A DNA stretch of 56,035 bases from a virus. Its lineage: Duplodnaviria; Heunggongvirae; Uroviricota; Caudoviricetes. The notes under the pieces are model-generated. The model searched no databases. It worked only from the letters and a program-made list of their open reading frames with translations, and was not told where the DNA came from. A program made the position numbers and the translations under genes. Of the stretch, positions 51,297-54,633 are shown piece after piece. The stretch lies in the IMG/VR virus record IMGVR_UViG_2740892233_000026; one strand, written 5' to 3'. How positions within the stretch are numbered: position 1 is the first letter of the stretch; every line of letters starts with the position of its first letter.

Positions 51297-53420
51297 ATGT
51301 CAGATATCACCGCAAATGTTGTGGTCAGCATGCCTTCGCAACTCTTCACTATGTCTCGCTCTTTTAAAGCCGTAGCCAATGGAAAAATTTATATCGGTAA
51401 AATTGACACTGACCCGGTAAATCCAGAAAACCAGATTCAGGTTTATGTGGAAAACGAAGACGGTTCTCACGTTCCTGTTTCGCAACCAATCATCATTAAC
51501 GCTGCTGGTTACCCTGTATATAACGGACAGATTGCCAAGTTCGTAACTGTGCAAGGCCATTCTATGGCTGTTTATGATGCATACGGTGCGCAGCAGTTCT
51601 ATTTTCCGAATGTGCTAAAGTATGATCCAGATCAGTTTAAGGGCAATCTCCTGAGCGAAGATCACTCACTTGGCGACTCTCTAGTCATGCATAACCCACA
51701 GTTTGTCGATAGCACATCGACCATTCTCTCAAAAAAGCTAACTATCGACCTGAGGACGCTTACAGACTACGGGTTTGCTGAGGGAAACACCGGTGCTCAG
51801 AACAAAGCTGCATTTCAGAAGGCTATTGATGATGCTACGTTGCCAACTGAGATTGTTATACCAGAGGGGGCGTTCATTGTTGACCCTGGTATTACGATTA
51901 AGAATACTGTCACCATGATACGAGGTGCTGGCGCATATCAGTCCAGAATTTTCTCTACGGGTACAGCGGCACCGATAATCACGCAACAAGATGGGGTAAT
52001 TACGTTCTGCGAGTTCAGGGACTTTGGTCTTGACGGAAATGGCTACGCAGCTAACGGCATCAGTCTTACTGAAGCCAACCACATTAAAATAGAAAATATT
52101 GACGTGGTTAATACTAATAACAACGCAATATTAGTTAACGGTTACTCCATTGACATCATTGGGTGCCGGTTGTTTCAAAACGCCGGTAACGGTATTAATG
52201 TTGGTGGTTACTGCAATAATATTAATATAATCAACAGCCGTATCTATGGTAACGGAGCCGGTGGAGTTTTACTTACGCCAGCTTACGCTGAGGGCGGTAT
52301 GAGCGTCAGAGTTAATGGCAACAATATAGAGCAAAATAAGTTCTACGGACTTTTGGCTTACGGGGTTAAAGGCCTTAACCTTGATGCTAACTATTGGGAA
52401 CGCAACGGTGAGATTGGTTACCCGTATAGTGTACCTGAGTCTATTACAGTACGTGCGGATATCCACCTTATCGCGAACAATTTTACATTAATTCCTGACC
52501 TTTCAAAAATTAATGATACCGTATCTATTCGCGGGAATCAGCAGACCGCGATTGGCTACGCCAGCGCGCTACCTAACCAAGACGGATTTATTTTCACGAA
52601 CTATGCGAAAAACCTGACGATTGAAAATAATCAGTTATTAGACGCATCGAAAGTGAATAATTTATTAGCAATGTACCACAATAATCTTTCGTCCAAAGTT
52701 ACTGACAGGCTATATCTTGCCAACAACACAGTGAACTCCATCGGATACGTTGGTAGTTATGACCCGGCGACACAAAACCCTGACACTGCGCATTTAATAG
52801 ATATTGCGAACAGAGAGTTAACTGCTAACTATCTTGATCGAAATATGTTGCTCTGGACTGCGGCATCTGGAACTACAGGAACATTGATAAAAACTCAAAA
52901 CATCTATGCTGGTAATTATTCATTCTTAGTTACGACAGGAGATAGAGTTTGGGGACGAACGATAGACCTCAACAAATCACCAGAACTAAAAGGGAAATTT
53001 GTATGGTTTGGTGCGTGGGTCAATGACCAGGGATCAGCGTCAAAACTTATGTTTATAATTAATGGTGCAGGACAAACAGACTCTACAGCACCTTTAGCTG
53101 GTAATGGGAAATGGAGCTATGTTAGTTGTGGTGTGTATATATACGAAACTGATACAGCTATAAATGTTGGTATAAGAAATTATGGTTCAGGAAATGTACT
53201 CATAAACTCACCTTCTCTATGTGCATATGGAATGCCATCAAACGCGTTGCAAGTTGAAAAAACAACATTTTATCTTTCGTCAGTACCTACATCCGGTTTC
53301 TGGGATATAGGTGAGCGTGTTATCAATAGCGCACCTGCTTCAGGACAACCAAAGGCATGGACATGCAATATTCCAGGTGGGCCAGGAACCTATTCTTTCT
53401 TATCAGAGGGAAACTTTTAA
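51297..53420 (+). CDS. tailspike protein (P22-type head-binding domain plus beta-helix receptor-binding domain)
   Basis: ATG 51297 with GGAG 8 nt upstream; [58 protein letters not shown] matches P22 tailspike N-terminus; C-terminal two-thirds AT-rich with repetitive N/G-rich beta-helix-like segments. Confidence 0.9.
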
Positions 53421-53490
53421 AAGACCTATGTATTGAAATGATTACTTTGATCTGGTATGTTTAAAAAAAATCAGTAAAACACATTTTGAT

Positions 53491-54633
53491 ATGGAAAGAA
53501 AAACAAATAAGTTAGACTCTATTCAAGTCCTTAGAGGGATCGCGGTACTTCTAGTCATTGCGTTTCACTTTAGAGTATATTTAAATGGAGTGTATGCCCA
53601 AAAGGACTTGGGCGACATTCTTTTTGGTATAGGTGAGGTTGGTGTTGATATATTCTTTGTTATAAGTGGATTTATCATTACTTATTCTTCAATGAATAAG
53701 GCAAAAAACCGGCCAATGGTGTTTGCTGCTAAGCGTTTTTTTAGGTTGTACCCTGTTTACTTTATAATCCTTACTCTGGCTATATACCTCAACTATGAGG
53801 CAATATATACATCATCACAAATAATAAAGAGCTACTTGCTCATACCAATTGACTATAATTTTATAGGGCCATGGTCAGGTTATAGTATAATAATACCTGC
53901 ATGGACACTAACGTATGAAATTTGGTTCTATGTGGTTTTCTTTTTTTCATTATGCATCAGCCATAAATATAGAACTGCGATCGCATCATTTCTTCTCATC
54001 ATTATTTGCGTTCTTGGTCAACTGTACTTTCACGGAGATGTTTTTCTAAATCCTATCGCGCAACCGCCATCTGGTGATGGAATTATTCGTAATCTGGTAT
54101 TTGTATCAAATCCAATAATATATGACTTTATTTTGGGGATGATTATTGCAGAGGCCTACATTAGGCTACCTTCTAGACTTATAAATAAAATGCCTGTTGT
54201 TCAATTTCTTAATATTACATTAGCGATTGCCTTGCTTTTTTTATGTCTAGGGTTAAGGAATGGACCTGGAATTGTAGCATGGGGGGCTTATTCATTTATG
54301 ATTATAGCCCCAATAGTCCTTATTTCTAAGTGTAGGGATGTATATAGAAATAAAATTCTAACGTATGTTGGTGAAATATCCTATTCACTTTACATTAATC
54401 ATATGGTTGTATACAGTCTTGCTGTTTTATATCTCAAACCGTACGGGGTATTGGATAGTAAAGGATTTGGTGTTTTTCTAGCTATGATTTGCGCTACTTT
54501 TATTATATCAATCATATCTTATAACTTTATTGAAAAACCATCAGTATCCATAGGGCATGCCATCGCTCGTAGAATGCAAAAAAAATCAGATGTATCTTCA
54601 ATTAAAACTGAATCCGTTAGAGAAGCACCTTGA
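53491..54633 (+). CDS. membrane acyltransferase family 3 (O-antigen acetylase-like, oac-like)
   Basis: 380-aa polytopic membrane protein; N-terminal RGIAVLLVIAFHF, FFVISGF motifs of acyltransferase_3; AT-rich; located between tailspike and int as oac in Sf6. Confidence 0.8.
   Translation: MERKTNKLDSIQVLRGIAVLLVIAFHFRVYLNGVYAQKDLGDILFGIGEVGVDIFFVISGFIITYSSMNKAKNRPMVFAAKRFFRLYPVYFIILTLAIYLNYEAIYTSSQIIKSYLLIPIDYNFIGPWSGYSIIIPAWTLTYEIWFYVVFFFSLCISHKYRTAIASFLLIIICVLGQLYFHGDVFLNPIAQPPSGDGIIRNLVFVSNPIIYDFILGMIIAEAYIRLPSRLINKMPVVQFLNITLAIALLFLCLGLRNGPGIVAWGAYSFMIIAPIVLISKCRDVYRNKILTYVGEISYSLYINHMVVYSLAVLYLKPYGVLDSKGFGVFLAMICATFIISIISYNFIEKPSVSIGHAIARRMQKKSDVSSIKTESVREAP

Follow-up and report, generated by a model that had tools for sequence, protein, structure and literature searches.

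An AT3 acyltransferase gene beside an O26-specific tailspike in the lysogenic-conversion slot of a P22-like Escherichia coli prophage

The DNA analysed here is the complete 56,035-nucleotide (nt) stretch of the IMG/VR virus record IMGVR_UViG_2740892233_000026 (Caudoviricetes), hereafter the window. Our interest lies in three genes at its right end, which the list of open reading frames (ORFs) gives as a tailspike, an ORF of 380 amino acids (aa) and an integrase. The 380-aa product is a membrane acyltransferase of the AT3 family, and we consider here what it might do beside a tailspike whose receptor-binding domain (RBD) is specific for the Escherichia coli O26 antigen. The gene coordinates and gene calls of the initial annotation, which was made from the letters alone, were borne out by the ORF list and by Pfam. 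The features of the locus are as follows:

51297-53420, plus strand: tailspike gene, 707 aa, WP_001280420.1
51297..51641, plus strand: tailspike N-terminal head-binding (particle-anchoring) domain, aa 1-115, matching Pfam PF09008 and Sf6 gene 14
51642..51830, plus strand: neck and first turns of the receptor-binding part, aa ~116-178, common to phage N7 and containing the left RBD junctions
51831..53386, plus strand: exchangeable O26-specific RBD, a right-handed beta-helix with a C-terminal beta-sandwich-like domain
53387..53420, plus strand: final 34 nt (11 codons) of the tailspike ORF, grouped by homology with the downstream cassette and not with the RBD
53421..53490, plus strand: AT-rich 70-nt spacer (GC content 0.243) with a sigma-70-like element
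53491..54633, plus strand: stand-alone AT3 (PF01757) membrane acyltransferase, 380 aa, WP_000440209.1, a predicted O-antigen O-acetyltransferase
54634..54808, plus strand: 3' flank specific to the AT3 cassette; matches to the int regions of Sf6, HK620, HK633 and N7 start only at ~54809-54885
54809..54877, no strand assigned: conserved int-proximal segment with hairpins (RNA fold z-score -2.55 for 54625-54900)
54878..56035, minus strand: prophage integrase IntS of the Sf6/HK620 type, an arm-type tyrosine integrase by its three domains (Pfam Phage_integrase, Phage_int_M, Arm-DNA-bind_3)

The integrase gene is 95-97% identical at the nt level to int of Sf6, HK620 and CUS-3, and in strains 11368, RM10386 and BAA-2196 it abuts tRNA-Arg (argW), with yfdC beyond. 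The O26:H11 strain 11368 carries an annotated phage tailspike, WP_001280420.1, and acyltransferase, WP_000440209.1. Because intS, tRNA-Arg and yfdC follow these two genes in 11368, we identify the right end of the window as the late end, at argW, of a P22-like (Lederbergvirus) prophage whose integrase/attP placement is of the Sf6/HK620 type. Located between the tailspike and intS/tRNA-Arg, the 380-aa AT3 gene occupies the tailspike-to-int/attP slot of Sf6-type loci, and the locus is the lysogenic-conversion slot of a P22-like prophage in which an O-antigen-type AT3 adjoins an O-antigen-specific tailspike. One hairpin of the int-proximal segment, AAGGTGG-N6-CCACCTT with a T-rich run after it (~54862-54890), extends over the int stop codon, and many further E. 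coli genomes match 54809-54870 only.

The tailspike itself has the P22-type head-binding N-terminus that the initial annotation described: Pfam recognizes Head_binding (PF09008; aa 1-113, E 2e-67) and, beyond it, Beta_helix. Over 51283-51637, the head-binding end shares 86% nt identity with Sf6 gene 14, and a PDB sequence search matched the N-termini of the P22 and Sf6 tailspikes. The RBD has the right-handed parallel beta-helix fold of P22-like tailspikes, and acidic residues are invariant at D173, E232, E255 and D275 (RBD numbering); the N7 sequence was left out of the alignment used for structure prediction. The closest solved relatives of the RBD are at most 18% identical to it, and the fold matches span hydrolases, lyases and epimerases, such that fold searches assign no enzymatic class. 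Since the O26 repeat (rhamnose, N-acetylfucosamine and N-acetylglucosamine [GlcNAc]) contains no uronic acid, the RBD more probably acts as a glycoside hydrolase than as a lyase.

The tailspike is O26-specific, and this specificity is already known because the window protein is the one that was predicted, and then tested, to be so. A 2023 survey placed the receptor-binding protein (RBP) of the Lederbergvirus prophage of O26 strains in a predicted O26-specific subtype (PMC10408124). In a 2025 study, the C-terminal domain of the RM10386 tailspike I3U_RS19900 was grafted onto TSP3 of phage CBA120, and the resulting chimeric phage (RBP-CBA120-9) gave an O26-specific luciferase signal, that is, adsorption and DNA delivery, with neither plaques nor spots on O26 strains (PMC12737597). 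The signal was verified on strain BAA-2205, and BAA-2196 was among the O26 strains plated; the neighbouring acyltransferase goes unmentioned (PMC12737597). In RefSeq, I3U_RS19900 is WP_001280420.1, identical to the window tailspike, and the same acyltransferase adjoins it in RM10386. Table 2 of PMC12737597 lists the RM10386 tailspike as WP_038987731.1, versus WP_001280420.1 under locus tag I3U_RS19900 in the current RefSeq, a mismatch that probably reflects a re-annotated start or a superseded accession. The initial annotation had considered the specificity unrecognizable, which does not hold, and had named identity of the C-terminus to that of a well-characterized tailspike as evidence against its proposal; such identity is partly the case, as the protein is identical to RM10386 I3U_RS19900, whose RBD has been used experimentally. 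NCBIfam has no family for the tailspike or the AT3 protein, and literature searches on protein accessions and locus tags found no mention of them.

The AT3 protein is, as initially proposed, a polytopic family 3 acyltransferase. Pfam Acyl_transf_3 (PF01757) covers positions 2-325 of the 326-position profile at 100.9 bits, against a gathering cut-off of 31 bits, and the protein has no second Pfam domain and no fused SGNH domain. The defining AT3 motifs (PMC7448272; for family features see also PMC9833829) are all present: the R/K-X10-H motif of transmembrane helix (TMH) 1 as R15-X10-H26, with R15 and H26 invariant; the FFxISG motif of TMH2 as FFVISG at 55-60; and the RxxR motif at TMH3, with R82 invariant and R85 at least 90% conserved. 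Likewise invariant are W138, E143, G216, S297, Y301 and E348. Conservation was read from alignments of 16 and 24 sequences, the former including Sf6 Oac. The protein has about 9-10 hydrophobicity peaks, and its AlphaFold model consists of ten long helices (pLDDT 88, pTM 0.89) with no extra domain. The only probable PDB fold matches of this model are to HGSNAT, a human acetyl-CoA transferase (search probability 0.96-1.0, E 0.007-0.03, TM-score 0.33-0.40), in agreement with the proposed TmAT superfamily (PMC12423673); a sequence search of the PDB with the AT3 protein gave no match. In PHROGs, the protein belongs over its full length to phrog_3333 'O-acetyltransferase' (E 3e-103), and PADLOC gave no match for AT3, for orf173 or for a 617-aa ORF in the left part of the window. 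At 380 aa, AT3 is longer than Sf6 Oac (333 aa), as the initial annotation stated, the excess consisting of loop insertions and a basic C-terminal tail; the length itself is typical of the subfamily, whose members have 365-386 aa. Identity to Sf6 Oac is 28% over 120 residues and 22% in the family alignment, and identity to the AT3 proteins of sequenced phages is at most 36%, the best of these homologs being annotated 'exopolysaccharide production protein'.

The ratio of nonsynonymous to synonymous substitution rates (dN/dS) is 0.11, 0.09 and 0.08 against homologs of 86%, 80% and 56% identity. No frameshift was found in AT3 among the O26 genomes examined, and the module is intact in BAA-2196, where the conservative AT3 substitution F346L, the only one seen in AT3, accompanies V59L in the tailspike. 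A pseudogene, which would have undercut the initial proposal, was considered and rejected given an intact gene and a dN/dS of about 0.1 (0.08-0.11); judged by its sequence, the AT3 gene is intact and under selection.

Upstream of AT3, the spacer contains a sigma-70-like element at 53433-53461, composed of TTGAAA, 17 nt, and TATGTT, with a TG upstream of the -10. Both TTGAAA and the TG-extended -10 are conserved in the window, in a metagenomic contig (L004) and in a locus from an unclassified Escherichia (L005), and are unalignable in distant loci. Just downstream of the -10, the spacer has an A-run (53463-53470) of eight residues (A8) in the window and nine (A9) in BAA-2196 (L019), and changes in its length are a possible source of variation in expression.

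The module is tightly associated with O26. Of 5,426 complete E. coli genomes, 105 contain a 3.2-kb stretch (51650-54870) at 99.9-100% identity, and no matches of intermediate quality occur in that set; the next best are fragments of 50-140 nt, and no other complete E. coli genome has an AT3 match longer than 140 nt. The O26-specific wzy-wzx pair is present in 109 of the same genomes. Comparing the two sets by their counts and by the overlap of many listed accessions indicates that the prophage right end is carried by almost all complete E. coli O26 genomes, where it is nearly fixed. Among phage genomes, megablast covered only the head-binding end and int, and tblastn identified N7 as the sole relative of the RBD among sequenced phages. 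Many O26:H11 genomes (L009/L010) have, in addition, a second, PhiV10-like prophage near ppx, with an 873-aa tailspike (7001-9622) whose RBD matches window 51831-53386 at 99-100% nt identity and is followed by a lone 120-aa GtrA-family gene; this prophage has no gtrB, gtrC or AT3. Both the P22-like and the PhiV10-like prophage, with the same RBD, are present in genomes 97-3250, 2015C-4944 and 10153.

Only the AT3 gene is a strong AT-rich outlier. Its GC content is 0.344 (0.281 at third codon positions). Windows of the same size never fall below 0.423 within the P22-like late genes, and of those taken elsewhere in the window only 1.8% reach so low a value. The RBD, at 0.416 versus a late-gene mean of 0.487, is indistinguishable from mnt (0.423), orf173 (0.431) and the conserved head-binding part of the tailspike (0.426), and GC starts to fall as early as the gp16-like gene (0.464). 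The initial annotation held that the RBD and the acyltransferase were both AT-rich relative to the structural genes, which stands for AT3; for the RBD, the contrast that it implied with the conserved N-terminus is absent. Low GC was also considered as proof of recent import and rejected: Limnobaculum, Morganella and other Escherichia have AT3 homologs with GC contents of 0.30-0.37, and O26 wzx and wzy are at 0.31. Because both the AT3 subfamily elsewhere and O26 wzx/wzy are equally low, low GC is in itself no mark of recent transfer.

Do the RBD and AT3 form one exchanged cassette, as was first suggested? They do travel together at times. Across the metagenomic contig L004, which has a PhiV10-type anchor, a single 2,898-nt alignment (51716-54584) runs collinearly through RBD (64% identical to that of the window), spacer and AT3 (86-87%), with sliding identity of 0.8-0.9 in the spacer and AT3 versus ~0.6 in the RBD. 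A Limnobaculum locus (L013), also with a PhiV10-type anchor, pairs a 56% RBD with a 56% AT3. In Morganella morganii (L006/L007/L008), one RBD (99% over 537 aa) with an identical 368-aa AT3 is joined to a PhiV10-type anchor in one prophage and, in another, to an anchor of the P22 type; L006 and L008 have an additional AT3 (305 aa) ~0.6 kb beyond. Collinear RBD-spacer-AT3 homology is therefore present in unrelated backbones (L004 and Morganella), the RBD and AT3 subfamily are paired in three divergent lineages (the window, L004 at 64%/87% and L013 at 56%/56%), and the subfamily lies downstream of tailspikes in at least five independent loci.

The two also recombine apart. In a P22-like prophage on a Logan contig (L020, ERR1622100), an 87% RBD is followed by gtrABC, as is a 79% RBD in Citrobacter sedlakii; next to a 59% RBD relative there is an AT3 of unrelated sequence (23% identity), encoded on the other strand, and no modification gene follows the tailspike in an 82% RBD relative or in phage N7. 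The L020 tailspike (4001-6124) is itself a mosaic, its C-terminal domain (window 52821-53360) being 93-99% identical and its beta-helix part ~65-80%. On the left, sliding identity to N7 is ~100% until ~51830 and ~0.55-0.65 thereafter, and homology to the PhiV10-like O26 prophage starts at 51755. On the right, homology to L009, L011 and L013 stops at 53386/53387, where sliding identity to L020 also collapses, and partners without the window AT3 all lose homology at ~53386, 34 nt inside the tailspike ORF. Homology of L005 to the AT3 cassette starts at 53407, and that of L004 is continuous through 53387..53420. The RBD and AT3 do not, then, share boundaries and history, RBD-only exchange ending at 53386. 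Because partners without the window AT3 lose homology there, we recognize two units in a general modification slot: the RBD unit (~51831-53386) and the AT3 cassette (~53387-54810) are adjacent modules, sometimes co-travelling and often recombining apart, and their linkage is real but loose. Of the single cassette, the co-travel in L004, L013 and Morganella remains; RBD-only exchange, and RBD relatives followed by gtrABC, an unrelated AT3 or nothing, speak against the rest.

In L005 (GCA_004211955.1, 3019-7140), an 81% AT3 lies between guaA and DUF5384/ppx with no intact tailspike; a second AT3 and a 41-residue remnant of a tailspike C-terminus (66% identity) are close by. The arrangement points to a decayed prophage whose acetylases have been retained, in the same chromosomal neighbourhood as the O26 PhiV10-like prophage.

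A phage acetylase next to a tailspike is not a new arrangement; the locus is of a familiar serotype-conversion kind with direct architectural precedents, and its underlying biology is well established. In Sf6, also a P22-like podophage, with the same head-binding domain and an int ~96% identical in nt, the order is tailspike (gene 14), oac (gene 15) and int (gene 16). There too an AT3-only O-antigen acetyltransferase lies between tailspike and int, and R-X10-H, FFxISG and RxxR are common to both enzymes. The Sf6 oac gene differs in being on the opposite strand (convergent), with its own annotated promoter and terminator, whereas the window AT3 is co-directional with its tailspike; the RBDs, moreover, are unrelated beyond about residue 330, the Sf6 target being rhamnose III of the Shigella flexneri O-antigen. 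The initial comparison to oac next to int in Sf6 is thus apt for position only; with opposite orientations and just 28% identity in a 120-residue match, the two genes are not co-oriented orthologs. A second precedent is the P22-like prophage of E. coli O104:H4, in which the tailspike gene is closely followed by one for a putative O-antigen acetylase (Scholl et al., 2012, PMC3303846). It too combines an E. coli pathogen, a tailspike for the host's own O-antigen and a downstream acetylase, which is retained even in a prophage remnant (PMC3303846); its RBD and serogroup are different. The O-acetyltransferase of PhiV10 (Uetakevirus) acts on the O157 antigen and blocks PhiV10 infection, so that a phage acetylase modifies the O-antigen used by its own tailspike, which is what we propose for the window. 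PhiV10-type anchors bear this RBD family and AT3 subfamily in L004, L013 and Morganella, yet the backbone and serogroup of PhiV10 differ from those of the window, and the O26 PhiV10-like prophage has a gtrA remnant and no AT3. Cassettes of the P22/SfV gtrABC type occupy the same slot downstream of the tailspike (compare L020 and C. sedlakii), with three genes for glucosyl transfer via undecaprenyl phosphate-glucose as opposed to one gene for acetyl transfer. For the tailspike, the precedent is the protein itself: that of the RM10386 prophage used in RBP-CBA120-9 (WP_001280420.1, locus I3U_RS19900). Overall, the initial annotation was largely right in what it observed and right in kind in its interpretation; it missed that the specificity was already known and that there are two modules, not one.

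The sole new element is the link that we propose between WP_000440209.1 and O-acetylation of O26. The O26 O-antigen gene cluster has no acetyltransferase gene. According to a 2026 preprint, the O26 repeat of strain GTC 14605 is incompletely O-acetylated, with the modification localized to the N-acetylhexosamine (HexNAc), a site termed 'not previously assigned' and for which no gene is named. The O26 glycan of an engineered glycoconjugate has been assigned to the unmodified reported structure. Because the O26 cluster lacks an acetylase, acetylation of HexNAc is reported and the engineered glycan is unmodified, and given the position, family and distribution of the gene, we infer that the prophage AT3 is the prime candidate for the reported acetylation. 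Our favoured reading, which we consider reasonably probable, is that this is a lysogenic-conversion locus like those of Sf6 and PhiV10, with AT3 O-acetylating the O26 antigen. The tailspike is anchored to the virion by its P22-type head-binding domain and carries the O26-specific beta-helix RBD. AT3, presumably by the mechanism of its family (PMC7448272, PMC9833829), would act on the O26 repeat unit, which would account for the partial O-acetylation of HexNAc (GlcNAc) reported in 2026. The lysogen would thereby change its surface antigenicity, and phages with the O26 antigen as receptor would adsorb to it less well, though not fail to adsorb altogether, by analogy with PhiV10 Oac and Sf6 Oac.

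Perhaps AT3 acylates some other envelope glycan, such as enterobacterial common antigen, colanic acid, O-antigen capsule or peptidoglycan, with no relation to the tailspike receptor. AT3 proteins have many substrates (PMC9558356), and the 'exopolysaccharide production protein' label of the best phage homologs, the want of a specific NCBIfam equivalog and the 81% homolog on a chromosome without an intact tailspike (L005) would all fit. That 'orphan', though, lies within a decayed prophage with a tailspike C-terminal remnant, and the window AT3 sits in the classical seroconversion slot, directly after an O-antigen-specific tailspike, as members of its subfamily do after tailspikes in at least five independent loci. 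Together with an acetylated O26 antigen whose gene cluster has no acetylase, this leaves another substrate rather unlikely in our view.

Several observations weigh against the favoured reading that AT3 converts the O26 antigen. The near-perfect O26 association could reflect clonal inheritance in O26:H11 and not a functional link. Promoter-like sites are no commoner in the region than expected by chance (13 found versus 15.1 expected from shuffled sequence), and no clear Shine-Dalgarno sequence was found for AT3. No terminator was predicted between the tailspike and AT3 or after AT3, in a scan that was no better than with shuffled sequence. Because neither the promoter nor the terminator scan outperformed shuffled sequence, we claim no defined transcription unit; AT3 may be expressed from a promoter of its own, by late read-through or by both. 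Such weak promoter evidence, along with the rearranged prophage in the source genome of the window, might be taken to mean that AT3 is a silent passenger, neither expressed nor active and intact only because the O26:H11 clone is young, and 99.9-100% identity among O26 genomes indeed says little about selection within the clone. Across the subfamily, however, dN/dS is 0.08-0.11 and the catalytic motifs are invariant, the sole AT3 substitution in BAA-2196 is conservative (F346L) and no frameshift was seen in the genomes examined, and we therefore give a silent AT3 very little credence.

Exclusion of phages is a further difficulty. The AT3 gene is intact in BAA-2196, one of the O26 strains plated with the chimeric phage, DNA was delivered to O26 cells, and some genomes carry both RBD prophages. 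Any exclusion can thus be no more than partial, unless the RBD tolerates acetylated O26. It may be, then, that AT3 modifies O26 and that the acetylated antigen is accepted, or even preferred, by the tailspike; the two would in that case be co-adapted to benefit the host, through antigenic change or exclusion of other O26 phages, and not for self-exclusion. An RBD identical to that of the window delivered CBA120 DNA into O26 strains, the module being present in 105 genomes and O26 wzx-wzy in 109; AT3 is intact in one of the plated strains (BAA-2196); P22-like and PhiV10-like prophages with the same RBD coexist in 97-3250, 2015C-4944 and 10153; and the reported acetylation is incomplete. Against this, the lack of plaques and spots on O26 is equally compatible with reduced adsorption and with later blocks, co-resident RBDs may stem from intracellular recombination between prophages rather than from superinfection, and in the precedents tested (PhiV10 and Sf6) acetylation blocks the cognate phage. 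We regard this reading, of a tolerant tailspike co-adapted with AT3 for the benefit of the host, as improbable, and return to conversion of O26 by AT3 as the favoured reading.

It is tempting to go further and speculate that WP_000440209.1 is the GlcNAc O-acetylase of O26 and, jointly, that the RBD and AT3 form a long-lived, co-diversified pair of receptor and anti-receptor across the Enterobacterales. Instances of co-diversification would be E. coli (100/100), the metagenomic PhiV10-like phage (64/87) and Limnobaculum (56/56). This joint reading is a tentative one, on the doubtful side of possible; if true, it would partly explain why phages bearing the RBD deliver DNA to O26 without forming plaques.

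The remainder of the window has a mixed composition. It matches the P22-like prophage of 11368 only from 34674 rightwards, and 24991-28950 matches the lysis/Q/nin region of that prophage in the opposite orientation. From 1 to ~24000 are lambdoid prophage late genes on the minus strand (tail assembly I, tape measure, lambda-type portal, gpA terminase, Rz and Q). No complete E. coli genome contains 27000-36500 in one piece, the best covering 79% and ending at ~34663. This arrangement of the left part looks like inversion or recombination between prophages, or is possibly an assembly join, and leaves the P22-like late operon and AT3 detached from the prophage early region. A second AT-rich patch (29600-32300, GC ~0.33) is as low in GC as the AT3 gene and includes a 617-aa ORF (30060-31913, plus strand; phrog_9230 of unknown function, no Pfam or PADLOC match), which lies between the nin/Q and lysis genes. 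The region between nin/Q and the lysis genes is a frequent site of morons in lambdoid phages. An ORF on the minus strand (50353-50874; phrog_6067 of unknown function, no Pfam or PADLOC match) is flanked by the gp16-like ejection gene and mnt, where P22 has sieA. From an internal Met it reads MKKSLLIIPLLLVGCAK, with a lipoprotein signal peptide and lipobox, and it is a possible further moron with a role at the surface or in exclusion.

O26:H11 is the leading non-O157 serogroup of enterohemorrhagic E. coli (EHEC), and the O26 antigen is a target of serotyping sera, of candidate glycoconjugate vaccines and diagnostics, and of phage- or tailspike-based detection. The locus also illustrates how the slot downstream of podophage tailspikes is filled in a modular fashion, by AT3, by gtrABC or not at all, with a recurrent junction ~34 nt inside the tailspike ORF. 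If AT3 does acetylate O26, glycans made from the cloned O-antigen cluster alone would miss the natural epitope, gene-based serotyping would overlook the acetylation, and phages or tailocins built on this RBD may do poorly on wild strains unless acetylation is considered. The AT3 gene would then be a prophage-encoded, nearly fixed and hidden modifier of a major EHEC serogroup.

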